A stretch of 64,000 bases of DNA, taken from an uncultured delta proteobacterium. GTDB taxonomy: Bacteria > Desulfobacterota > Binatia > UBA9968. Positions 33,630 through 44,255 of the stretch are shown in pieces. Numbering within the stretch: position 1 is the first letter of the stretch; every line of letters starts with the position of its first letter. The notes below the pieces were generated by a model. That model had not been told where the DNA came from. It did no database searches and worked only from the letters and a program-made list of their open reading frames with translations. The position numbers and the translations under genes were made by a program. The DNA lies in assembly GCA_963760795.1 (NCBI GenBank), contig CAVXEP010000029.1, forward strand, positions 1 to 64,000. The letters are read 5' to 3'.

Positions 33630-34610
33630 TTACTTTGCGCGAATCGCATCAGGAATCTGAATACCCGCGGCGCGCCAGTGATCCTCGGCGCCTTTGTGCA
33701 GAGGAATCGTGACGCCTTGCAGGGCCCGTTGCGTGACCATGTCCTTCGATCCAGCATGGACCTTCATCATATGGGCGTTGCCTTCCTTGCTATAGGCCGC
33801 TGCGACCATTCTCTGCAATAGGGCAGGCGATAGGTCCTTATTGACGTACCAAATCACCGGAACGCCGATGCTTGAAGTATCCTCGCTAATGCCACGGTAG
33901 GAATTGGCGGCGAAGACATAGCGGGCGAAATAAGGAAACTGTTTATAGAAGTCAGTCTTTGAGACAGGCGTATGGACGTCGATGGCGCGCACGGGTTTTT
34001 TCGTGGCGGCTTCCGTAGTCACTCGGTCGGGCTCAGGGCCGGTCCAGAAAAACGCATCCGCTTTGCCCTCGCTCATCGCGTCACCCGCGGCCGCGCCGAG
34101 CAGAGGAATCCGGTTGATCTTGTCCCACATACCGACCGCGCGAAAGATCCGCTCCGCCGTGGCAAAGGTTCCCGAACCAGGATTGCCAACCGCGACACGT
34201 TTGCCGGCGAGATCGTCAATGTTGCGGATGCCGCTATCAGTGTAAGTCATCAAATGGGCGACCCCGAAGAAAACAACACCGACGGAGCGAAGATCGGTTA
34301 ACGGTTTGCCGGCAAACTTTTCCAAGCCGAAAAAAGCTTCATGGGTGTCCGAAGAGAAAGAGACTGCCATCTCCGCTTCCTTGGAGTTGATCCGGCGCAC
34401 GTTTTCCACAGAGCCGCCGGTGGCCGCGACGGAAACGTCGAGGTTAGGGACGTTTTTTGATAGGAATGTGCCGATGCCGGTGGCGAAAATGCCGAAAACT
34501 CCCGCCGGCGGCCCCCCCGCCATGGTCATCCGCTCGACGTTCTGCGACTGCGCAACGGACAGACTCAAGCAAAGCAAGATAGCTGTCACAAACAACCCAA
34601 GCCTTTTCAT
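33630..34610 (-). CDS. TAXI family TRAP solute-binding protein
   Basis: Signal peptide, TGGSVEN, GKRVAVGNPGSG, IPLHKGA. Confidence 0.92.
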   Translation of the reverse strand: MKRLGLFVTAILLCLSLSVAQSQNVERMTMAGGPPAGVFGIFATGIGTFLSKNVPNLDVSVAATGGSVENVRRINSKEAEMAVSFSSDTHEAFFGLEKFAGKPLTDLRSVGVVFFGVAHLMTYTDSGIRNIDDLAGKRVAVGNPGSGTFATAERIFRAVGMWDKINRIPLLGAAAGDAMSEGKADAFFWTGPEPDRVTTEAATKKPVRAIDVHTPVSKTDFYKQFPYFARYVFAANSYRGISEDTSSIGVPVIWYVNKDLSPALLQRMVAAAYSKEGNAHMMKVHAGSKDMVTQRALQGVTIPLHKGAEDHWRAAGIQIPDAIRAK

Positions 34611-34655: not shown

Positions 34656-35864
34656 CTAAAATGGGCCGCTTTCCAAATGTTTTTTTACTTGCTGCAGAAA
34701 GCGCGCCGCGCTGGCGCCATCGACCACTCGATGGTCGGCCGACAGTGTCGCCGTCATCATGGATTTAATCTCGATGCCGTCGCCGTCCGTGACCACGCGC
34801 GGCGCGACCCGGCCGACGGCTAGGATCGCGCACTGCGGCGGATTGATGATCGCGATGAAGCTATCGACGCCCAGCATGCCGAGGTTCGACACGGTGAACG
34901 TGCCGCCTTCGTAGTCGAGCGGAAAGAGCTTTTTATTTTGCGCCTTATCGGCCAGCGAGCGGCTCTGCTTGGCCAATTCAAGCAAATTCAGCTGGTCCGC
35001 GTTGCGAATCACCGGCACGACCAGGCCTTCATCGAGCGCAACAGCGACTCCGACGTTGATGTCAGCGTGCTGCAGAATTCCTTGCTCGGTGAAGCTTGAA
35101 TTCACCTGCGGAAATTCTTTAAGCGCGCACGCCGAGGCTTGGAGAATAAAGTCATTGATCGATGGCATCGGCTCGTCGCCACGTTCCTTCCATCCGTTTC
35201 TAAGCTTGCTCACCGCTGTCATGTCGATGTCCATGCTGATGTAAAAATGCGGCGCCGTTTGTTTACTCTGCGTCATGCGCTGGCCGACGATGCGGCGCAT
35301 GGGGGTGAGCGGTAATAAGCCGCGCGCTGTTGAAGTCGCGGGCCGCGCAAGGTTTCCGTTGGCGGCCCGCTGCACATCGGCGGCTAGAACGCTTCCTTCC
35401 GGGCCGCTGCCAGTGAGAGTTGCCAGGTCGATGGCGCTTTCTTTGGCGAGTCGTTTTGCTTTTGGTGACGCGAGAATTCGTCCGCCGGTTGGCACCGTAG
35501 AAAAGGCCGGCATCGTTGTGGTTTTTGAGGTCGTCGCGCGGCCCTCACCCCTGCCCTCTCCCTGGGGGAGAGGGGGTAAGAGTGGAGCAGACGCGGGCGT
35601 GTCTTGCTTTGTCGGCAGCGCTTCGCCCGGCGCCAAGATCAGCGCGATCGTCTGACCCACTGGCACTTCATCACCGGCTTTCGCCGTCACGCGAGAGAGA
35701 ATACCGGAAGCCGCTGCTTCGATCTCCACCGTCGATTTGTCGGTTTCGATTTCCATCAGCGGCTCGCCTTTGGTCACGGCTTGACCTTCGGCTTTGAGCC
35801 ACTTGAGCAGTGTTCCCGTTTGCTGCGCCACTCCGAGGGCGGGCATGATCACGTTGGTTGGCAT
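34656..35864 (-). CDS. Dihydrolipoamide acyltransferase (E2)
   Basis: Lipoyl ETDKS, PSBD ASPKAKRLA..GSGPEG, catalytic DHRVVDG. Confidence 0.95.
   Translation of the reverse strand: MPTNVIMPALGVAQQTGTLLKWLKAEGQAVTKGEPLMEIETDKSTVEIEAAASGILSRVTAKAGDEVPVGQTIALILAPGEALPTKQDTPASAPLLPPLPQGEGRGEGRATTSKTTTMPAFSTVPTGGRILASPKAKRLAKESAIDLATLTGSGPEGSVLAADVQRAANGNLARPATSTARGLLPLTPMRRIVGQRMTQSKQTAPHFYISMDIDMTAVSKLRNGWKERGDEPMPSINDFILQASACALKEFPQVNSSFTEQGILQHADINVGVAVALDEGLVVPVIRNADQLNLLELAKQSRSLADKAQNKKLFPLDYEGGTFTVSNLGMLGVDSFIAIINPPQCAILAVGRVAPRVVTDGDGIEIKSMMTATLSADHRVVDGASAARFLQQVKKHLESGPF
35542..35576. repeat. Palindromic repeat located in-frame in E2 linker
   Basis: CCCTCACCCCTG-CCCTCTCCC-TGG-GGGAGAGGG; encodes PLPQGEGRGEG. 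Confidence 0.75.
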
Positions 35865-35912
35865 CGATGGTTGCTTATCACGGGAGGTTGTTAGGCGGTA
35901 GACCCGATATTT

Positions 35913-35940
35913 GTAATGGCGACCGGCCGGTCGCCCCTAC
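35913..35940. repeat. GTAG-type REP
   Basis: Minus strand GTAGGGGCGACCGGCCGGTCGCCATTAC. Confidence 0.8.
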
Positions 35941-35975
35941 CTGTTGCCTATTATTGCCTAATGCCCGTCGCCTTC
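35941..35975. repeat. TTGCCTA 7-mer repeat, second copy at 40790-40814
   Basis: CTGTTGCCTATTATTGCCTAATGCCCGTCGCCTTC versus CTGTTGCCTAATGCCCATTGCCTTC. Confidence 0.7.
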
Positions 35976-35978
35976 TTG

Positions 35979-36446
35979 TCATTTAATCGCCTTACTCGCC
36001 CGGAACAGCACCGACTGTGGAATGTTCAAACCGATCTTCTTGGCGGTCTGAAGACTGATCACGAAGTCAAACTTCATCGGCTGTTCGACGGGTAGATCGG
36101 CAGGCTTAGTGCCTTTCATAGTCTTGTCCACGAAGACTGCAGCACGGCGCCACATATCCAAACTGTTGGGTCCATAGGACATTAGGCCACCAGCCTCCGG
36201 AAATCGCGCATCGCCGTATATCATTGGAAGGCGGTTCTTTAGCGCGAGTTCTGCGATTCGTCCTTGCAGTAAAGTGAACGTTGGGTTGGTGAGCCCCGTG
36301 ATAGCGCCTACACGCCTGTTGGTGATTGATATAAAAACCTTCTCTAAATCGTCTCGACCTCGCGTTTCCAGCTCTTGAAGCTGCAGACCTAGCACCTGTG
36401 CTGCAAGTTTAACTTCTTTCATTTGCACGACGTACCCTGGATGGGG
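35979..36446 (-). pseudogene. C-terminal half of ABC_sub_bind-type substrate-binding protein (5'-truncated)
   Basis: GGLMSYGP, RAAVFVDK, KPADLPVEQP.KF...LQTAKKIG; no signal peptide, in-frame TGA about 16 codons upstream of GTG 36428. Confidence 0.8.
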
Positions 36447-36495
36447 TAATCTCGAAATTCATCTTCGTCCACTCATCCGCGGCGGCAAGTTTTTT

Positions 36496-37058
36496 TTAAA
36501 TCCCTCCATATTTTGGGGCTCTTTCGCTAACGATGAAACCAATCTTTCGTTTCGTCGGCTCCGGTGGTTTCATAAGCTGCCGGATCGCGTCAAAGACTAC
36601 CTTAAACTGAGCATCGTACTTTTTCTCCAAAGCTTCGACCTTCCGCGCTAATTCAGCATTGGTCGCGAGCAGCTGGCGCAAACGAACGAAGGTCCGCATG
36701 ATTTCAATGTTGACCTCGACTGCGCGCTTGCTGCGGAGAACGCTCGAAAGCATGGCGACGCCTTTTCCGTAAAGGCATAGGGCGGATGGCGCCGGCCACC
36801 CCAATCCGAACTTGATATCGCAAATTGCGATTTCAAGTTTAGGTTATTAGCCTGCGCCTTCAAATTGTGGAATTCCGCCTCGCTCAGCTGGAACATAAAA
36901 TCACCGGGAAAACGATGACGGTTGCGCTTGACCGCTTCATTCAGTCTCCCGACGCTTACTGCGTAAAGTAGAGCGAGATCGGCATCAAGCAGCACTCTAT
37001 GACCACGAATGAGAAGTATAGCTTGCTCAATTCTCTCTGCTGAAACTTGTTTGGTCAT
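36496..37058 (-). CDS. ORF6N-domain DNA-binding protein, -1 frameshift at about 36765
   Basis: [39 protein letters not shown] / [27 protein letters not shown]. Confidence 0.9.
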
Positions 37059-37076
37059 CGATTACCTGTTCTCTGT

Positions 37077-38393
37077 CTAACCCTTCACCCGCTCCAGCGC
37101 TCCCGGATTGTTCAGATTCGATTGCGCTTCGCGGGTGGTCGGCAGCTCCCCGCCGGTGGTGAAATAATGCGTGCCGGCGACCAGCAATTTTTCCGAGGGG
37201 AAGCGGGTGATGATTTCGCAACCATCTTTCGTCACGACAACTTCTTCTTCGAGACGCGCGGCGGACCAGCCGTCGGCGGCGGGCCAGTAGGTTTCCAGCG
37301 CGAAGACCATGCCTTCTTCGATCACTTCGGGATGATCGAGAGAAACCAAGCGGCTGAAGATCGGTTTCTCCCAGATCGACAAACCGACGCCGTGGCCATA
37401 TTGTAATGCGAAGGCGGCTTCTTCGTTGGCGAAACCGAACTCTTGCGCCTTCGGCCACAGCTTGACCACATCCGCCGTCGTGATACCCGGCTTGACGATG
37501 CTGATCGCGGCGTCCATGTAGTCGCGGCTCCGTTTGTAGGCGTCGACCATCGCCGGCGAGGCGCTGCCGATGGCGAACGTCCGGTAGTAGCAAGTGCGGT
37601 AGCCGTTGAAGCTGTGGAGAATGTCAAAGAACGCCGGATCGCCGGGACGGAGCACGCGGTCGGTATAGACATGCGGATGCGGACTGCAACGCTCGCCGGA
37701 AATCGCGTTGACGCCCTCGACATGTTCGGAGCCGAGATCGTAAAGCACTTTGCTGACCACGCCGACGCATTCGTTTTCTTTCACGCCAGGTTTCATGAAG
37801 CGATAGAGCTCATCGTAAGCGGCGTCGACCATCATGGTCGCGGTGTTGAGCAACGTGATTTCATCCTGGGTTTTGATTTTTCTGACTTCATGCATCAACT
37901 GCTGGCCGTCGACGACCTTGATGCCTTGGGCTTGGAGGGCGAACAGCACCGGCATCTCGATCACGTCGACGCCGACCGGCTCGTTCTGTAAGTTGCGCAT
38001 TTCTAATTCGAGTTTAATTTTTTTCGCGACATCTTCGGCCAATCCGGAGCCTGGATTGGTCGCGCCGCGCAGCGTGGAAATGCCGGCGCGCGAGCGCTCG
38101 CCCAACCAGGGGCAGTAAATCTGATGATGGCGCGCCGCCGAACCGAAGTCCCAGAGAATAGGTTCGTCATCCTGCGGCAATAACGAGAAGCGCACCAGCT
38201 TGTCCATCGCCCAGGTGCCGATATGGGTCGCGGTAATGTAGCGGATGTTGTTCATGTCGAAGCAGAGCAGCGCGCCCAACTCCGATTTCTTCAGCGCGCT
38301 CTTAACCCGGGCCAAACGATCCTGGCGCAGCCGCTCGATGTTAACGCGCTCTTCCCAATCGACAGCCATCAGGCCGAAGGTTTTTAAGCCCAT
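37077..38393 (-). CDS. M24 (Xaa-Pro peptidase/creatinase) family protein
   Basis: N-terminal NIRYIT, RKIKT.DEI, GHGVGL, FALE, RLEEEVVVT; GGAGG before ATG 38393. Confidence 0.88.
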   Translation of the reverse strand: MGLKTFGLMAVDWEERVNIERLRQDRLARVKSALKKSELGALLCFDMNNIRYITATHIGTWAMDKLVRFSLLPQDDEPILWDFGSAARHHQIYCPWLGERSRAGISTLRGATNPGSGLAEDVAKKIKLELEMRNLQNEPVGVDVIEMPVLFALQAQGIKVVDGQQLMHEVRKIKTQDEITLLNTATMMVDAAYDELYRFMKPGVKENECVGVVSKVLYDLGSEHVEGVNAISGERCSPHPHVYTDRVLRPGDPAFFDILHSFNGYRTCYYRTFAIGSASPAMVDAYKRSRDYMDAAISIVKPGITTADVVKLWPKAQEFGFANEEAAFALQYGHGVGLSIWEKPIFSRLVSLDHPEVIEEGMVFALETYWPAADGWSAARLEEEVVVTKDGCEIITRFPSEKLLVAGTHYFTTGGELPTTREAQSNLNNPGALERVKG

Positions 38394-38413
38394 TGCCAAC
38401 CTCCAAAATCTAG

Positions 38414-38522
38414 CGTTCCAACAAAATCTACGGTTCCAATCGTTCCAGCCGTTCCAAGGGTTCCAATTGTTAATCCCTCTTCAACGATTGGAACAACTGG
38501 AACGTTTGGAACTGTTGAAACC
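38414..38522. repeat. Short-period palindromic element (9-nt period, GTTCCA / TGGAAC)
   Basis: GTTCCA at 38433, 38442, 38451, 38460; TGGAAC at 38489, 38498, 38507. Confidence 0.85.
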
Positions 38523-38566: not shown

Positions 38567-39586
38567 CTATTTGTCGCACAATATTCGCGCCAATTTCGCA
38601 ACGTTTTCCGGCGTCGGCACCGTCTGATCTTCGAGCACCGGCGAGAACGGTACCGGCACATCCATGGCGCCCATCCGTTTCACCGGCGCATCGAGATAAT
38701 AAAATGCGCCGTCGGCGATCACCGAAGCGATCTCGGCGGTGACGCCGTATCGCTCGTAGCCTTCATCGATGACGATGGCGCGGCTGGTTTTTTTTGCGGA
38801 CTCAATGATTGTCTGCTTGTCCAGCGGCGCGGTGGTTCGAACATCGACGACTTCGGCGCTGACCTCATACTGTGCTAATAATTCCGCCGCTGCCAGCGCG
38901 ACCTGAACCATGCTGCTGGTGGCGACCAGCGTGATGTCGCTGCCGGCGCGCTTCACGTCGGCGACGCCGAGCGGAATTGTGTATTCTTCCGTCGGTACAG
39001 AACCTTTGAGCTGGTACATCAGCTTGTCTTCGAAAAAAGCCACCGGGTTATCGTCGCGGATCGCCGATTTGAGCAATCCTTTAGCGTCGTACGGCGTTGA
39101 CGGCACGACAACTTTCAAGCCGGGAATGTGACTCAACCAGGCGTGCAAGCTCTGGCTATGCTGTGCCGCCGAGCGGCGCGTGGCGCCAAGCGTTGTGCGT
39201 AAGACCATGGGAACTTTTAGCCTACCACCGGACATGTAGTGAATCTTCGCCGCCTGATTGACCATCTGGTCCATTGTCAACGTTATGAAGTCGCCGAACA
39301 TGATGTCGACCACCGGGCGCATGCCAGTCATCGCCGCGCCGACCCCGATGCCGGCGATGCCGGCTTCCGAAATCGGCGAATCGATCACGCGCTCGGTGCC
39401 AAACTCTTTTACCAACCCCGACAAAACTTTGAACGGCGTGCCCGCCTCGGCGACATCTTCGCCGATGATGAATACCGTCGGATCGCGCCGCATCTCTTCG
39501 GCGAGCGCTTCGTTGATTGCCTGGGCAAAGGTGATTTCGCGCAAGCCGGTTTCGACTGTCGGTGTTTTTTGAGGCGGTGATTTCAT
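38567..39586 (-). CDS. TPP-dependent dehydrogenase E1 beta (acetoin/pyruvate DH-like)
   Basis: IGEDV, DSPISE, VNQAAK, AAQHSQ, PGLKVV. Confidence 0.95.
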   Translation of the reverse strand: MKSPPQKTPTVETGLREITFAQAINEALAEEMRRDPTVFIIGEDVAEAGTPFKVLSGLVKEFGTERVIDSPISEAGIAGIGVGAAMTGMRPVVDIMFGDFITLTMDQMVNQAAKIHYMSGGRLKVPMVLRTTLGATRRSAAQHSQSLHAWLSHIPGLKVVVPSTPYDAKGLLKSAIRDDNPVAFFEDKLMYQLKGSVPTEEYTIPLGVADVKRAGSDITLVATSSMVQVALAAAELLAQYEVSAEVVDVRTTAPLDKQTIIESAKKTSRAIVIDEGYERYGVTAEIASVIADGAFYYLDAPVKRMGAMDVPVPFSPVLEDQTVPTPENVAKLARILCDK

Positions 39587-39676
39587 GCTGTATGGCTCTC
39601 AGCCGTTAGGTCATCCAGGAAATACGCAAGTTTCGATTACTTGCTACCAATCGAAAAGCGGACCCGCGGACCAAAA

Positions 39677-40739
39677 TCATTTGACCACTCTCTCCGCCCG
39701 CATCAGCACCACCGGTGGAATCGTCAAGCCGAGAGCTTTGGCTGTCTTGAGGTTGATCATCAGTTCGTATTTGACCGGCTGCTGCACGGGTAGGTCAGCG
39801 GGATTCGTTCCCTTGAGAATTTTGTCCACGTAGACGGCAGCACGCCGGTATATGTCAGTAGAGTCCGGTCCATAAGACATGAGACCACCGACGTGAATCC
39901 AATCGGTGTCCGGGTATATTGCCGGCAGCCGGCGCTTCGCGGCGAGTTCTACGATCCGTTTTGGATTACTTTGGATGGGAGACTGCTGCGCAACGACTAG
40001 AGCGCCGGCTTGCGCCTTGGTCGCCGCCTCGAATGCACTATCGATATCGTTGGGACTTCGCACTTCGAGAGATTGAACCAGCACGCCGAGGTCTTGTCCT
40101 GCGGTCGGATCTCTTTTAAGACCACGTCTGGGATGGATTATTGCTCGGATTCAAGAGGACGCCCACACGGGTAAGTCTGGGAATTGTCTCCTTGAGAATC
40201 TCCAATCGTTTTCCGTACAACCCCGGCGCGCCGGTACTGAACCCGGTGATGTTGCCTCCAGGCTGTGCGAGACTAGCCACCAACCCACTGGCAACCGGGT
40301 CGACGTCGCCAACGGATATGATTGGAATCACGCTAGTCGCTTTCTTGGCCGCGCGTCCTGCCGGGCCTCCCGCGGCGAAGATGATATCAACTTTGAGCCG
40401 AACCAGTTCAGCTGCGAGGCCGGAAAGCCGTTCAACGTTTCCCTCCGCCCAGCGGTATTCAATATTGATGTTCTGCCCCTCAACATAGCTCAATTTCCTA
40501 AGACCTTGCCGCAAGGCTTCGGCGTTGAGCGATGCGCGACCACCAGTGCCGACGCCTAGAAAACCCATCCGGGATACTTTCCCCGGCTGCTGCGCCTCGG
40601 CCACAGCCCCACAAGCCGCCAGCGCGAAAGCAATTATAGAAAGCCCCACCCATTTTCGTCTGCGGGGCCGCTTTTGGATTTTGGATTTTCGATTGTCGGA
40701 TTGAAACCACCGAATTGCAGTCGGAAATTTCTTTGTCAT
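39677..40739 (-). pseudogene. ABC_sub_bind-type substrate-binding protein, disrupted at about 40095-40125
   Basis: YVEGQNI.IEYRWAEG, AELVRLKVDII, DPVASGLVASLAQPGGNITG; then GGLMSYGP, PADLPVQQP, INLKTAKALG in another frame; several indels at the junction. Confidence 0.85.
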
Positions 40740-40783
40740 GTCCTAGTCCGCCAATCCAAAATCCAAAATCGCAAATCCAAAAT
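40672..40783. repeat. Short-period palindromic element (7-nt period, TTTTGGA / TCCAAAA) enclosing the SBP start codon
   Basis: TTTTGGATTTTGGATTTTCGATTG ... CAATCCAAAATCCAAAATCGCAAATCCAAAAT. Confidence 0.85.
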
Positions 40784-40819
40784 TTCTTACTGTTGCCTAA
40801 TGCCCATTGCCTTCAAGTC

Positions 40820-41827
40820 TCAAGCATATACATGCTGATCGACTTCACCCGGTTCCGGGTACGGCGTATTGAGGGCGAAGTTTACGGCGTCTTTGATTTC
40901 CGCCGAGACTTCGTTTTCGATTCGTTGGCATAACTTGCCGTCCGCCAGTTTATTCTTCTCAAGCCAAGCGGCGAGCAGCTTCACTGGGTCGCGCTTCGAT
41001 TTCCACTCTTGCTCTTCGGCTTTGGTTCGATAGTAGGCGCGGTCGATGTCGCCGACGTGATGGCCGTGGAAGCGGTAGGTGAGACATTCCAAAAAGGCCG
41101 GCCCGTCGCCGCGGCGCGCGCGCTCGACTAATTTTTGCGCGGTGGCGTGGAGCGCGCGCACGTCCTGGCCGTCCAGCGATTCAACGTGAATGCCGAATGC
41201 TTTAGCGCGTCCGGTCACTTCGCCAGCGGTGGTTTCGCGATAATGGGTGTACTCGTTGTACTGATTGTTCTCGCACACGTAGAGCACCGGCAGCTTCCAG
41301 AGCGACGCCATGTTCATCGTTTCATAAAGCAGCCCTTGCCCCAGAGCGCCGTCGCCGAAGAAACAGACCGCAACTTGATCGCTCTTGCGCATCTTGATCG
41401 ACATCGCCGCGCCGGTGGCGATGCCGGCGCTGCCGCCGACGATCGCATTCGCTCCCAGATTGCCGGTGTCCTGGTCGGCGATATGCATCGATCCGCCTTT
41501 GCCGCGGCAGTAACCGGCCTCTTTGCCGAGCAACTCGGCGAACATTCTGTCCAGCGCTGCGCCTTTGGCGATGCAATGGCCGTGGCCGCGATGGGTGCTG
41601 GTGATGTAATCGTCTTGCCGCAACGCTTCGCAGACACCGACGGCCACCGCTTCTTCGCCGATGTAGAGATGGGCGAGCCCCGGCATCTTGGCGCCGAGAT
41701 AAAGTTGATTGACCTCTTCTTCGAAGAGACGAATCTTCAGCATCTGCCGGTAGAAGTGGAGCCAGCGCTCGTCGTGGGCGGGAGCGCGCGCTGGCGGGTG
41801 CATTTTGGTCTTCTTGGATTGTGCCAT
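40820..41827 (-). CDS. TPP-dependent dehydrogenase E1 alpha
   Basis: HLYIGEEA, STHRGHGH, GKGGSMH, TPP motif GDGA...ENN, TYRFHGH. Confidence 0.95.
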   Translation of the reverse strand: MAQSKKTKMHPPARAPAHDERWLHFYRQMLKIRLFEEEVNQLYLGAKMPGLAHLYIGEEAVAVGVCEALRQDDYITSTHRGHGHCIAKGAALDRMFAELLGKEAGYCRGKGGSMHIADQDTGNLGANAIVGGSAGIATGAAMSIKMRKSDQVAVCFFGDGALGQGLLYETMNMASLWKLPVLYVCENNQYNEYTHYRETTAGEVTGRAKAFGIHVESLDGQDVRALHATAQKLVERARRGDGPAFLECLTYRFHGHHVGDIDRAYYRTKAEEQEWKSKRDPVKLLAAWLEKNKLADGKLCQRIENEVSAEIKDAVNFALNTPYPEPGEVDQHVYA

Positions 41828-41846
41828 CGGAGCGTCACCGTGAAAA

Positions 41847-41932
41847 ATTGGAGTACTGGAGTGTTGGAGTAATGGAGTATTGGGTTTTCCGGAACCCATC
41901 ACTCCACCACTCCAGTACTCCATCACTCCAAT
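41847..41932. repeat. Short-period palindromic element (8-nt period, TGGAGT / ACTCCA)
   Basis: TGGAGT at 41849, 41857, 41865, 41873; ACTCCA at 41901, 41909, 41917, 41925. Confidence 0.9.
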
Positions 41933-41938
41933 CTGCCA

Positions 41939-42817
41939 TCACTTCATCCCCGCCATTTTCGCCAGCACTTCGAAGACGATGGCGAAGTCCTTTTCCGCCA
42001 ATCCCATACCGCGGGCGGCGGTGAGAAATTGATTGGTAATTGAGGTTGTCGGCAGCGGCACATCGAGTTGGCGGCCCATTTCCAAGGCGAGCAGCAAATC
42101 TTTTTGCATCATATTGACGTCGAACCAGGCTTCGTCCGGCATGTTCAACACGAACGGTCCACGATATTTCACCATCGGCGAGGCCATGACGCTATTGAGC
42201 ATTACTTCGACGGCGGTTTCGCGCGCGATGCCGCTCTTCTCGGCGAGCAGCACGCCTTCGCTGAAGGCAAGCATTTGCACGGCGAGACTTAAATTGGTCG
42301 CGATCTTCATCGACACGGCCAAACCGTTGGCGCCGACGTGGGTTGCCTTCGGGCCGATCGCTTGGAGCACCGGCAGTACTTTTTCAAAGGTCTCCCGCTG
42401 GCCGCCGACCATGAATGAAAGCTTGCCTTCTTCGAGAGTGATCGAGCTGCCGGAGACCGGCGCATCGAGCATCTGCGCGCCCTTGGCTTCAACTAGTTTA
42501 GCGGTGGCGCGGATCGCCGCCGGACTGACCGTACTCATGTCGACGTAAATCTTACCGGCGGTAAGCCCTGCCAAGATTCCGTCCGCGCCGGCCGTGACCG
42601 CGCGTAGCGCTTCGGTGTTGGCGACCATGGAGAAAACCATGTCGCTCGCTGCGGCGGCGCGACGCGGCGTGTCAGCCCAATTCATTCCCAGGTCAAGCAG
42701 CCACTGCGCCTTGGACTGGGTGCGGTTGTAACCCGTTACGCTGTGGCCGGCGTCGAGCAGCCGTTTCGCCATCCGGCTGCCCATCACTCCGAGACCGACG
42801 AAACCGAGACTCGCCAT
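41939..42817 (-). CDS. beta-hydroxyacid dehydrogenase family NAD(P)-dependent oxidoreductase
   Basis: GFVGLGVMG, YNRT, DMST, LDAPVSG, MK..N, MQKDL. Confidence 0.92.
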   Translation of the reverse strand: MASLGFVGLGVMGSRMAKRLLDAGHSVTGYNRTQSKAQWLLDLGMNWADTPRRAAAASDMVFSMVANTEALRAVTAGADGILAGLTAGKIYVDMSTVSPAAIRATAKLVEAKGAQMLDAPVSGSSITLEEGKLSFMVGGQRETFEKVLPVLQAIGPKATHVGANGLAVSMKIATNLSLAVQMLAFSEGVLLAEKSGIARETAVEVMLNSVMASPMVKYRGPFVLNMPDEAWFDVNMMQKDLLLALEMGRQLDVPLPTTSITNQFLTAARGMGLAEKDFAIVFEVLAKMAGMK

Positions 42818-42852
42818 CGACAACTCCAACAAAAAGTCTGAAACTATTTTCA

Positions 42853-42994
42853 TCTCGCCAAGCCGCAAAGGCGCAAAGCTCGGAAGAAATGTCATTTCGA
42901 CCACAGGGAGAAATCTTCTGAGATCCCTCGCATTCGAAACTCGGGATTACGGGACATTTGCCCGTTACCTTTGCGTCTTGGCGCTTTTGCGAGA
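42853..42994. repeat. Short-period palindromic element (CGCAAAG units) with nested GTCAT-type REP-like sequence
   Basis: TCTCGCCAAG-CCGCAAAG-GCGCAAAG ... CTTTGCG-TCTTGGCG-CTTTTGCGAGA; inner GTCATTTCGACC...CTCGGGATTAC at 42891-42950. Confidence 0.8.
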
Positions 42995-43009: not shown

Positions 43010-44023
43010 TTAACTTTCCGCCTTGATGTACTTGCCCATCTCTTTCAGCGTCTCGGGCGTTTGGTTGAACAACGCATTAAAATCTTTGGTGACCTGTTCG
43101 GCGGAGATGTATGAAAAATCGATGCGCGCTCTCTTCGCTTCGGCGATGAGCTCTGGATCTTTGATCGCCTTGGCGAATGCTTCGCGCAATACGATCACGC
43201 GATCTTTCGGCGTGTTCGGATGGACGGCGAACGCGCGGCCAATCGCTTGAGGAATAGATTTGATCGACATCAGCGACTTGCCCAGCGCGCTGGTTGCCAG
43301 ATCTTCGTCCACCGGCAGATTTTCATAGCCTGGCAAAGCCGTGCGGCCGCGCACCAGCGGCCTGACGGCGCCACGGTCGGCGGCGAGTTTGATCGTCGTT
43401 GCCAACGCCGACCAGGCGTCCACTTCTTTCCGCTCGACAGCCAGCAGGACATCGCTGTTGGAAGGATAACCGGCGACTAATTTTAGTTTGGCGCCGGCGA
43501 ATTCCTTCAGCAGCAGGGGGAAGTCATGGGCGTTGGAGCCTGGTCCAGTAGTGCCGGCAACCAGTTCGCGGTCAGCCTTCTTCAAATCGTCAAAGCTCTT
43601 ATAAGGAAGGTCCGGGCGGATCGAGAACATCACGCCGTCGGCGCCGGAGGAGCCGAGCCACTGAAACTTGCGGGCATCGAAGCGCGCCTGTGGAATTTTC
43701 GACATCTGCGCGATGGCGACATTAGGGTTCGCCGCGAGTATGGTCAAGCCATCCGGCTTAGCGATGTTGAATACGTTATTGGTCGCCAACAGATGGGCTG
43801 CGCCAGGCATATGTTGCAAGATCACCGCCGGCTTGCCGGGAATGTATTTGCCCAAATGGTGCGCGACGATGAGCGCGGCGATTTCAAGACTGCCGCTCTT
43901 GGCGCCGATCAGAATGGTGACGGCTTTGCCATCGTAAAAATTTGCCTGTCCGAAAGCCGGCGCTTGCGCAAGGATGAGCCAAGTTAACAGCGAGAAAACC
44001 GTCATCTGCCGAGCTAGCTTCAT
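43010..44023 (-). CDS. TctC/Bug-like substrate-binding protein
   Basis: Signal peptide, FYDGK, LGKYIPG.P, MPGA, KPDGLT, GYP..D..LAVER.EVD; AGGAGG RBS. Confidence 0.85.
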   Translation of the reverse strand: MKLARQMTVFSLLTWLILAQAPAFGQANFYDGKAVTILIGAKSGSLEIAALIVAHHLGKYIPGKPAVILQHMPGAAHLLATNNVFNIAKPDGLTILAANPNVAIAQMSKIPQARFDARKFQWLGSSGADGVMFSIRPDLPYKSFDDLKKADRELVAGTTGPGSNAHDFPLLLKEFAGAKLKLVAGYPSNSDVLLAVERKEVDAWSALATTIKLAADRGAVRPLVRGRTALPGYENLPVDEDLATSALGKSLMSIKSIPQAIGRAFAVHPNTPKDRVIVLREAFAKAIKDPELIAEAKRARIDFSYISAEQVTKDFNALFNQTPETLKEMGKYIKAES

Positions 44024-44066
44024 GTAATCCTCCTGCAATACGATTCTTACCATTGATGTTAAGGGT

Positions 44067-44255
44067 AAATCCGAAATCCGAATATCGAAAGAAGCCCCGC
44101 GGACCGAAACATGGCGCAGCCAAATAAGTTTTAAACCCGAAGAAAATCCAAAACGCCGAATCCACATTGACTTTGTTTGGAATTTTCGGTGTTTTTGAAC
44201 ATTCGAATTTGTTTCGGGCCGCAGGGCCGCTTTCATGCTTCGGATTTCGTGTTTT
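44067..44255. repeat. Short-period palindromic element (7-nt period, AAATCCG / CGGATTT) with a 13-mer in both arms
   Basis: AAATCCGAAATCCGAATATCGAAA[GAAGCCCCGCGGA]CCGAAAC ... GTTTCGG[GCCGCAGGGCCGC]TTTCATGCTTCGGATTTCG. Confidence 0.85.

Follow-up and report, generated by a model that had tools for sequence, protein, structure and literature searches.

An orphan PF04392 binding-protein gene, with a tandem-array hairpin at its start, inserted between the E1 alpha and E1 beta genes of an uncultured delta proteobacterium

In a 64,000-nucleotide stretch of DNA from an uncultured delta proteobacterium (assembly GCA_963760795.1, contig CAVXEP010000029.1, positions 1 to 64,000 of the forward strand; this whole stretch is called the window), an orphan gene for a PF04392-type binding protein lies between the genes for the E1 alpha and E1 beta components (E1a and E1b) of a 2-oxoacid dehydrogenase. 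Below, G000 is the genome under study and other G-numbers are related genomes. We find that the gene entered a conserved HIBADH-E1a-E1b-M24-E2 operon as a lineage-specific insertion, in the spacer that separates E1 alpha from E1 beta. The repeats around it are probably not the ends of a transposon; both belong to a single family of tandem-array hairpins, the upstream one forming a leader that seems to pass from one PF04392 gene to another. We favour a reading in which such a leader module is combined with passive recombination at the arrays, and we put its probability at roughly 0.55.

The insertion emerges from comparison with relatives. When E1 beta was searched in 41 related genomes, 16 orthologous loci were recovered in the genus (82-96% identity). 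E1 alpha adjoins E1 beta without a binding-protein gene in 13 of them (G013, G002, G007, G011, G016, G001, G024, G012, G004, G005, G010, G018 and G019), and in the other three the contig ends first. A first-pass annotation, made from the letters of the window, had placed a PF04392-type gene between E1 alpha and E1 beta, and Pfam matches bear out all three genes. It had also suggested that the gene moves as a unit and that the E1a / E1b junction be aligned across relatives for empty alleles. These are present at 13 of the 16 loci and the insertion stands, but the mechanism attached to it, mobilisation in trans of something resembling a miniature inverted-repeat transposable element (MITE) or an attC cassette, finds no support. 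Spacers at the empty junctions range from an overlap to about 146 nt, those of G013, G019 and G002 being compact or overlapping. A solo TTTTGGA-type hairpin with no gene occupies the junction in G007, G004, G005 and G018, and a partial one that of G012; G004, which is unpublished, counts once among the 13 empty sites and once among the four solo hairpins.

Other relatives have a gene in this place. On a separate contig of G006, the E1 alpha stop is followed after 33 nt by an intact orthologue (73% and 81% amino-acid identity to the two pieces of the G000 gene). In G023, an AGGCAAT array and about 950 nt of other sequence separate the E1 alpha stop from the start of a gene with the same MNRRTAIR signal peptide as in G006; only 74 codons of it are on the contig, and it is probably the orthologue. 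G022, the sister of G000 in the E1b+M24 tree (100/99), has upstream of E1 beta an ORF (open reading frame) resembling a four-helix-bundle gene, recognised by eye only; a search for E1 alpha in this 86% complete genome did not find it. No target-site duplication is visible between filled and empty junctions, whose flanks are too diverged for certainty on this point.

Could a binding-protein paralogue simply have been misjoined into the operon? The assembly comes in 35 contigs and has many frame breaks, but an independent soil-metagenome contig (250 nt, 7 differences) bridges positions 39506-39755, from E1 beta through the 3' flank into the end of the gene, so the right-hand junction is not an assembly artefact, and G006 and G023 carry the gene after E1 alpha on contigs of their own. 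We therefore regard a misjoin as very improbable. As for the sequencing runs, none held more than 0.23 of the words of the stretch, and the four that were assembled yielded short contigs only; joints in these run contigs (sides of 20-40 nt, 85% likeness) probably belong to paralogues or other hairpins and were not used.

The gene itself carries two frame breaks, which the first-pass annotation overlooked. The Pfam profile is covered by two pieces (Table 1) and not by a single intact reading frame. When aligned with the G006 orthologue (83.1% nucleotide identity over 918 nt), it shows exactly two 1-base gaps, 25 nt apart, near 40131 and 40106, and all remaining gaps are multiples of three. Because the breaks lie so close together in an otherwise clean gene, and because conserved genes are likewise broken in similar few-contig genomes of the genus, both are probably assembly indels. 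One soil-metagenome contig (a single contig, depth 5.8) has an extra G behind 40105 that locally restores the frame. In G000 as a whole, the 98 PF04392 matches amount to 78 loci, 19 of them in more than one piece, and one relative has up to 80 strong matches. Many of the G000 matches are fragments, and several 3' flanks recur among the paralogues, e.g. AGAAGGCAAC...GGGGCGGATAAGGGAGCGCGGGTT.

What, then, are the repeats around the gene? The first-pass annotation had pointed to a 25/29 inverted repeat, a TTTTGGA-array hairpin around the start codon and a small hairpin after the stop, and all are there. The arms of the inverted repeat (39649-39677 and 40652-40680) are 29 nt long, 25/29 (86%) complementary and 974 nt apart, which by our own estimate is not to be expected by chance within 1.4 kb. 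Those of the hairpin at the start codon (40672-40700 and 40747-40775), likewise of 29 nt, match at 86%, rising to 95% over the inner 19 nt; Tandem Repeats Finder gives TTTTGGA x3.3 at 40672-40694 and AATCCAA x4.4 at 40753-40783. The small hairpin folds in no exceptional way (z -0.66). Both arms of the long repeat are instances of a motif dispersed through the genome: a GC box (GTCYGCGGGnCnGC) set into a TTTTGGA array. There are 42 such boxes in the genome, 20 with TTTTNRA directly behind (backwards-read control pattern, 16), and the box is a variant unit inside the arrays, located in the 5' arm in G003 or at C32:27866 and in the 3' arm at our locus. The 29-nt repeat is thus made up of the 3' arm of the leader with its GC box on one side and, opposite, the 5' arm and GC box of another hairpin from this family. 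Whenever two related hairpins point the same way a repeat of this kind results, which explains it. Moreover, the placement of the gene is independent of the repeat, since the G006 and G023 orthologues have no 5' hairpin.

A MITE-like transposon delimited by 29-bp terminal inverted repeats, as the first-pass annotation envisaged, would account for a 25/29 repeat with most of the gene between its arms. One of these arms is coding, however, both belong to the dispersed array-plus-GC-box motif, orthologues lack the 5' arm and no target duplication is seen. Nor are there similar copies, the best paralogue being 66.7% identical, and the unit carries a 1-kb gene, whereas MITEs are small, non-coding and near-identical. 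The coding arm, the dispersed motif, the missing copies and the one-armed orthologues already contradict this idea, and we give it next to no credence.

The anatomy of the upstream hairpin is best described as that of a leader. At the locus it spans 113 nt (40672-40784, nhmmer 8.9e-30); the ATG in the hairpin loop and the reading of the 3' arm as SDNRKSKIQK, both described by the first-pass annotation, are found as claimed, the ATG at 40737-40739. An alignment of 25 copies, 20 from G000 and five from relatives, has one constant layout: (ATTTTGG)n, a G-rich stretch resembling a Shine-Dalgarno (SD) sequence, an ATG in a fixed place, about 13 codons, TCCGACAATC and (AAAATCC)n. The 5' arm begins in several copies at the stop codon of an upstream PF04392 gene; at our locus it begins some 35 nt past the E1 alpha stop. 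In 12 of 18 leaders the frame set by the loop ATG runs on without a stop into the PF04392 domain, and relatives keep the peptide M.K....W..SDN.KSKIQNPKW, followed by a hydrophobic signal-peptide core. Given this conservation of frame and N-terminal peptide, the 3' arm is very likely translated.

The leader is at home in one bacterial family. The junction motif of its 3' arm is present in 25 of the 37 family members, of which G339 is unpublished, and in 10 of 11 genomes of the genus. Two sister families have it in one of five and none of 28 genomes, and a draw across the phylum in one of 250. A plasmid collection gave no leader match, and Rfam only miRNA-like hairpin matches far below threshold (best 29.6 bits, gathering score 100). 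Four leaders of relatives (L037, L038, L040 and L041, the last from the unpublished G004) have a small extra insert in the translated arm, reading ...KTCPESCRRI... or ...TWTESFDSAQDELRRS...; these inserts look like nested palindromic elements kept in frame. Phase variation by slippage of the 7-mers in the coding arm may also be imagined, an idea that we considered as such.

If the leader were an integral part of the gene, the two should share their history, and they seem not to. The G006 and G023 orthologues start with an unrelated, hairpin-less signal peptide of ordinary type (MNRRTAIR...), and the similarity of the G000 gene to them begins at the AEAQQP cleavage region. The leader and signal-peptide part of G000 is 78-84% identical to that of paralogues, as opposed to at most 67% for the gene bodies (66.7% over 929 nt for the closest paralogue). 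The 11 genes compared form 55 pairs, in which leader identity shows no correlation with gene identity (rho 0.01) and the leader is the more similar in 43. On a quick tree of 33 full-length paralogues, 9 changes are needed to place the 11 leaders, compared with a mean of 9.4 after shuffling, and the starred branches force at least 5. Two different PF04392 genes of G006, in two spacers of this operon (L032 and L088), share a nearly identical starting stretch coding MNRRTAIRQLTTFFLTTASLA, which looks like gene conversion of the 5' end. The difference between orthologues, the identity contrast, the rho value, the tree and the stretch shared in G006 together argue for repeated exchange of the 5' module between paralogues. 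In other words, leader and signal peptide behave, to judge from their sequences, as an exchangeable 5' module.

The same leader could be read as a pure expression element, that is, an RNA leader presenting SD and AUG, accompanied by intercistronic stems for stabilisation or processing, in front of a gene that arrived by ordinary rearrangement. Its conservation at the family level, the fixed loop position of the ATG and an arm apparently kept in frame and translated all speak for this, as does the fold: the predicted leader RNA is stable (-45.5 kcal/mol, z -2.98), and SD and AUG are left unpaired. The sense strand folds better than the antisense strand in 31 of 39 leader-type elements (median difference -4.5 kcal/mol), a bias that is not independent evidence because the leader copies are related. 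A GTTCCA hairpin also persists in the E1b / M24 spacer, its arms changing together, since both read GTTCAA in G011, G005 and G024. On the other hand, leaders turn up here and there on the paralogue tree with no relation to how far the genes have diverged, their alignment shows no covariation, the 72 general array hairpins between same-strand genes have no strand bias (37 versus 33), and solo leaders precede unrelated genes. We think it unlikely that expression is the whole story.

The leader belongs to a larger population of repeats. We define a tandem-array hairpin as two inverted runs of a 7-9-nt unit in an intergenic spacer; the class is not a published family, and the locus has this structure. 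The genome contains 147 array hairpins with 7-, 8- or 9-nt units, 104 of them mostly outside the ORF proxies, which fall into several unrelated unit families and cluster along the genome (14 gaps below 2 kb, 5 expected). Those built of AAAATCC units number 17, and for 12 of them a PF04392 match is no more than 200 nt away; an array hairpin of any kind lies within 200 nt of 16 of 78 PF04392 loci, as compared with 211 of 3628 control ORFs. Of the 39 leader-type elements found with an nhmmer profile, 18 are immediately followed by a same-strand PF04392 gene, 10 come right after one, and 24 do one or the other, against a background of 78 PF04392 loci among about 6,250 ORF proxies. Twelve have no PF04392 gene within 300 nt, and the other genes found behind such elements are varied (XDH-like twice, NMT1 three times, aspartate kinase, TGT and others). 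At the opposite end, TTTTNRW arrays directly follow the stop in 9 of 57 PF04392 genes, compared with 21 of 6255 ORF proxies overall. The first-pass annotation had anticipated arrays at both ends of these genes, and had named in advance two findings that would speak against mobility, the lack of any empty site and the lack of array enrichment; empty sites and a strong enrichment at both gene ends were found. Arrays are not confined to binding-protein genes. In fact, four of the six PF05635 genes in the genome (23S rRNA intervening-sequence protein, a four-helix bundle) lie inside inverted tandem arrays, each with a different unit: GTTCAA, GGATGA, GGGGTAA and GGAGTRAT.

These numbers raise the possibility of a true mobile cassette, in which an enzyme acting in trans recognises folded array hairpins and moves hairpin-gene-hairpin units, much as attC sites, REP/RAYT elements and rRNA intervening sequences might suggest, with binding-protein, four-helix-bundle and ORF6N genes as cargo. 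Such a system would make sense of arrays at both PF04392 ends, of an E1a / E1b junction that varies between empty, solo hairpin, four-helix-bundle-like ORF (G022) and binding-protein gene, and of an M24 / E2 spacer with non-orthologous binding-protein genes in G000 and G006 (55% identity, the E2 genes being 83% identical). It would also fit the four array-enclosed PF05635 genes, an orthologous hairpin in one relative (G012) whose loop carries roughly 260 nt of cargo, the clustering of hairpins, and the half hairpin that follows binding-protein stops even where no binding-protein gene comes next. Yet no copy exceeds 67% nucleotide identity, so that no recent move is visible, and neither a target duplication nor a fixed breakpoint is seen. 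The G006 and G023 orthologues do without the 5' hairpin, and the main arms enclose the start of the gene only, not the whole gene. A recombinase or HUH nuclease accompanying the repeats, another expectation of the first-pass annotation, did not appear: none of the three Y1 transposase matches (PF01797) in the genome lies within 3 kb of any array hairpin, and none of its 14 PF00589 tyrosine-recombinase matches is in the window, the nearest on the contig being at 124121, a search in which no IntI-specific model was run. An attC-like cassette fares no better, given a 3' flank with no GTTRRRY core and a window with no integrase. Altogether we hold enzyme-driven cassettes to be quite unlikely.

A bolder version, more doubtful again, is that the tandem-array hairpins are recombination sites of an undescribed cassette system that inserts promoter-less genes between the cistrons of conserved operons. 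If it were true, PF04392, four-helix-bundle and ORF6N genes would all be cargo, the TTTTGGA hairpin would be at once a joining site and a portable translation start with the head of a signal peptide, and it would be clear why orphan binding-protein genes have expanded so widely and so patchily in this bacterial family.

To account for these results we propose instead the leader module with passive recombination introduced at the outset. The comparison of junctions shows that an orphan PF04392 gene came to lie between E1 alpha and E1 beta in one sub-lineage of a genus, and the repeats around it are two members of one tandem-array hairpin family. The upstream member is a conserved 113-nt leader module of PF04392 genes in the bacterial family: its 5' arm would act as 5' untranslated region, its loop carries the SD-like stretch, the AUG and 13 codons, and its 3' arm would encode the basic n-region of a long signal peptide (SDN.KSKIQ...). 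The downstream member would be the first arm of a next leader together with a small stem. Most likely, leader and signal peptide were copied from a paralogue by recombination after the gene had settled in the spacer. More generally, recombination between array repeats, with no dedicated transposase, is probably how PF04392 genes and their hairpins arrive in spacers, displace one another there and decay.

Several points weigh against this proposal. Array enrichment at both gene ends, the solo TTTTGGA hairpins in the empty junctions of four relatives (one of them the unpublished G004) and the non-orthologous binding-protein genes of the M24 / E2 spacer fit a cassette mechanism as well as passive recombination. 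The change of 5' module may be either a gain in G000 or a loss in G006 and G023, the species tree being unresolved there. Leader identities are inflated by the low-complexity arrays, the paralogue tree has many open forks, the number of leader-type elements depends on the threshold, and gene positions are ORF proxies, not gene calls. Six of the 18 leaders are out of frame. As for the stem, its sense bias may be inherited from a common ancestor and not selected, it is 84% paired in a hand-made structure, as opposed to 30-60% when slid, but covariation does not exceed that of shuffled alignments (0.065 versus 0.070; 369 of 500 shuffles as high), and RNAalifold finds no consensus structure in the 25 leaders; the stem thus appears to be kept by conserved sequence only.

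The E1 alpha / E1 beta junction is not the only spacer of the operon to have been invaded. A second lineage-specific insertion, an ORF6N gene and the C-terminal half of another PF04392 gene, fills the M24 / E2 spacer of G000, which is empty in G013, G019 and G007. The counterpart in G006 consists of ORF6N and a full binding-protein gene, the one compared above with the G000 fragment, and that in G023 of further genes together with one for a binding protein and a solo leader. Several details of this spacer may be recorded on their own account. In the window (35865-37076), the PF04392 half-gene is followed by an AGGCAAT array and a GC-rich palindrome. In G022 the ORF6N gene ends in ...RADKFIK, which resembles a PF04392 tail, and this ORF6N-PF04392 fusion seems to have arisen by deletion. 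The solo leader of G023 (L087, about 2187-2400) is a complete leader hairpin after the binding-protein stop, with CTG in the place of the ATG and no gene behind it; a GGAGT-type hairpin stands directly 3'.

Full-text literature searches turned up neither inverted tandem-array hairpins nor PF04392 genes with a hairpin leader. Several known systems resemble the arrays in part. Integron cassettes with attC sites likewise combine a promoter-less ORF with an imperfect hairpin, in hairpin-separated gene arrays of variable cargo. In contrast, our 3' flank lacks the GTTRRRY core, there is no cassette array beside an attI site, PF00589 matches reveal no integrase in the window (no IntI-specific model was run), and the hairpin would double as a 5' coding leader. 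Rickettsia palindromic elements are palindromes inserted in frame into genes, and the palindromic repeat described here is similarly kept in frame and apparently translated as a protein N-terminus; unlike them, the leader brings the start codon with it and is linked to one gene family. Heptamer direct repeats are also familiar from the short tandemly repeated repetitive (STRR) sequences of cyanobacteria.

Repetitive extragenic palindromes (REP), with their mosaic elements (BIME) and the associated RAYT transposase (TnpA-REP), the subject of PMC2817692, PMC8266576 and PMC3733652, are dispersed many-copy intergenic palindromes in operons, often after stops and variable between relatives. In our case, however, the arms are 7-9-nt tandem arrays, the elements measure 70-130 nt and belong to several unrelated unit families of one design, and none of the three Y1_Tnp genes has an array hairpin within 3 kb. 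Intervening sequences (IVS) of 23S rRNA with an S23p / PF05635 ORF, treated for Coxiella in PMC4990558, have a long stem enclosing a small ORF, a likeness echoed by the four PF05635 genes between inverted arrays elsewhere in the genome and, at the junction, by the G022 ORF, by eye a PF05635-like gene. But the array elements here are not in rRNA, and the main stem at the binding-protein gene has no more between its arms than the SD, the start codon and 13 codons, with one arm presumably translated. The nearest published comparison that we found is with the TAACTGA heptamers, which the cited section describes as direct repeats in 5' untranslated regions of Beggiatoaceae, Cyanobacteria and Bacteroidetes, just upstream of start codons, with one inverted case among 170 sets, an unexplained spread and a suggested role in translational regulation (PMC4679880). 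Tandem 7-mers just 5' of start codons, and a spread that lacks an explanation, are common to both systems; unlike the direct TAACTGA arrays of that account, those described here are paired as hairpins, one arm being coding (PMC4679880).

Orphan PF04392 genes abound in these soil bacteria, and the locus catches them, inside a single genus, as they enter the spacers of a conserved central-metabolism operon and decay there. Of the full-length PF04392 genes, about one in three (11 of 33) carry a portable hairpin leader with a putatively translated arm, which would move among paralogues independently of the gene body. The system lends itself to laboratory tests of whether repeat-built hairpins drive gene shuffling in uncultured bacteria and of what a loop-held start codon does to expression. 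It is also a warning for annotation, as odd N-terminal peptides such as SDNRKSKIQ derive from array repeats.

Table 1. Coordinates of the features discussed, in window positions; the last four rows are given by contig.
Feature	Position	Strand	Remarks
TctC-like gene	43010-44236	-	
CGCAAAG 8-mer array hairpin	42856-42983		TctC-like / HIBADH-like spacer
HIBADH-like dehydrogenase gene	41939-42904	-	
GGAGT 8-mer array hairpin	41847-41930		HIBADH-like / E1 alpha spacer
E1 alpha (2-oxoacid dehydrogenase E1 component)	40820-41926	-	Pfam E1_dh, 1.1e-75
Spacer 3' of E1 alpha stop	40785-40819	-	AGGCAAT-type 7-mer array
Leader, 5' arm	40747-40784	-	(ATTTTGG)n, untranslated
Leader, loop	40701-40746	-	purine-rich SD-like stretch, ATG 40737-40739, first 13 codons (MTKKFPTAIRWFQ)
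Leader, 3' arm	40672-40700	-	read SDNRKSKIQK; conserved junction motif TCCGACAATCGAAAATC
29-nt repeat, right arm	40652-40680		end of 3' arm and GC box (40658-40671); codes KRPRRR
PF04392 binding-protein gene	39677-40739	-	between E1 alpha and E1 beta; Pfam
PF04392 gene, N-terminal piece	40116-40739	-	long signal peptide and first lobe, 207 aa; profile 19-146, 4e-21
PF04392 gene, C-terminal piece	39677-40150	-	different frame; profile 159-292, 1.8e-21
29-nt repeat, left arm	39649-39677		TTTTGG, GC box (39658-39671), TTTTCGATT; starts at stop codon; looks like 5' arm of another leader
Small hairpin before E1 beta	39631-39656		TTTCGATT (39631-39638) / AATCGAAA (39649-39656)
E1 beta	38567-39586	-	Pfam Transket_pyr and Transketolase_C
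GTTCCA 9-mer array hairpin	38433-38512		E1 beta / M24 spacer; same spacer in most congeners
M24 peptidase gene	37077-38399	-	
Second lineage-specific insertion	35979-37058	-	M24 / E2 spacer; ORF6N gene and C-terminal half of PF04392 gene
ORF6N gene	36496-37058	-	frame-broken; PF10543, 2.6e-25
Second PF04392 gene	35979-36428	-	C-terminal half only
E2 gene	34656-35864	-	
NMT1_3 binding-protein gene	33630-34610	-	
PF05635 gene in arrays	C32:416198-416512		
PF05635 gene in arrays	C31:40508-40825		
PF05635 gene in arrays	C25:182751-183017		
PF05635 gene in arrays	C31:29990-30286		

All genes between 33630 and 44236 are on the minus strand. Four consecutive spacers of the operon hold one array hairpin each, the longest such run in the genome, and each belongs to a different unit family: in order, the GTTCCA 9-mer, the TTTTGGA 7-mer (40672-40783), the GGAGT 8-mer and the CGCAAAG 8-mer. 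The AGGCAAT-type array that follows the E1 alpha stop is also found 3' of many PF04392 stops, and of the E1 alpha stop in G023. An N-terminal extension of E1 beta (MKSPPQKTP...) is common to G000 and G006. Upstream, the E1 alpha frame stays open through the GGAGT hairpin (41847-41938; MEYWSGGVMGSG...), and because of this read-through the listed GTG start of E1 alpha (41926) is probably too far upstream. In G012 (L011), the hairpin with about 260 nt extra in its loop is the orthologue of the GTTCCA hairpin, in the same E1 beta / M24 spacer.

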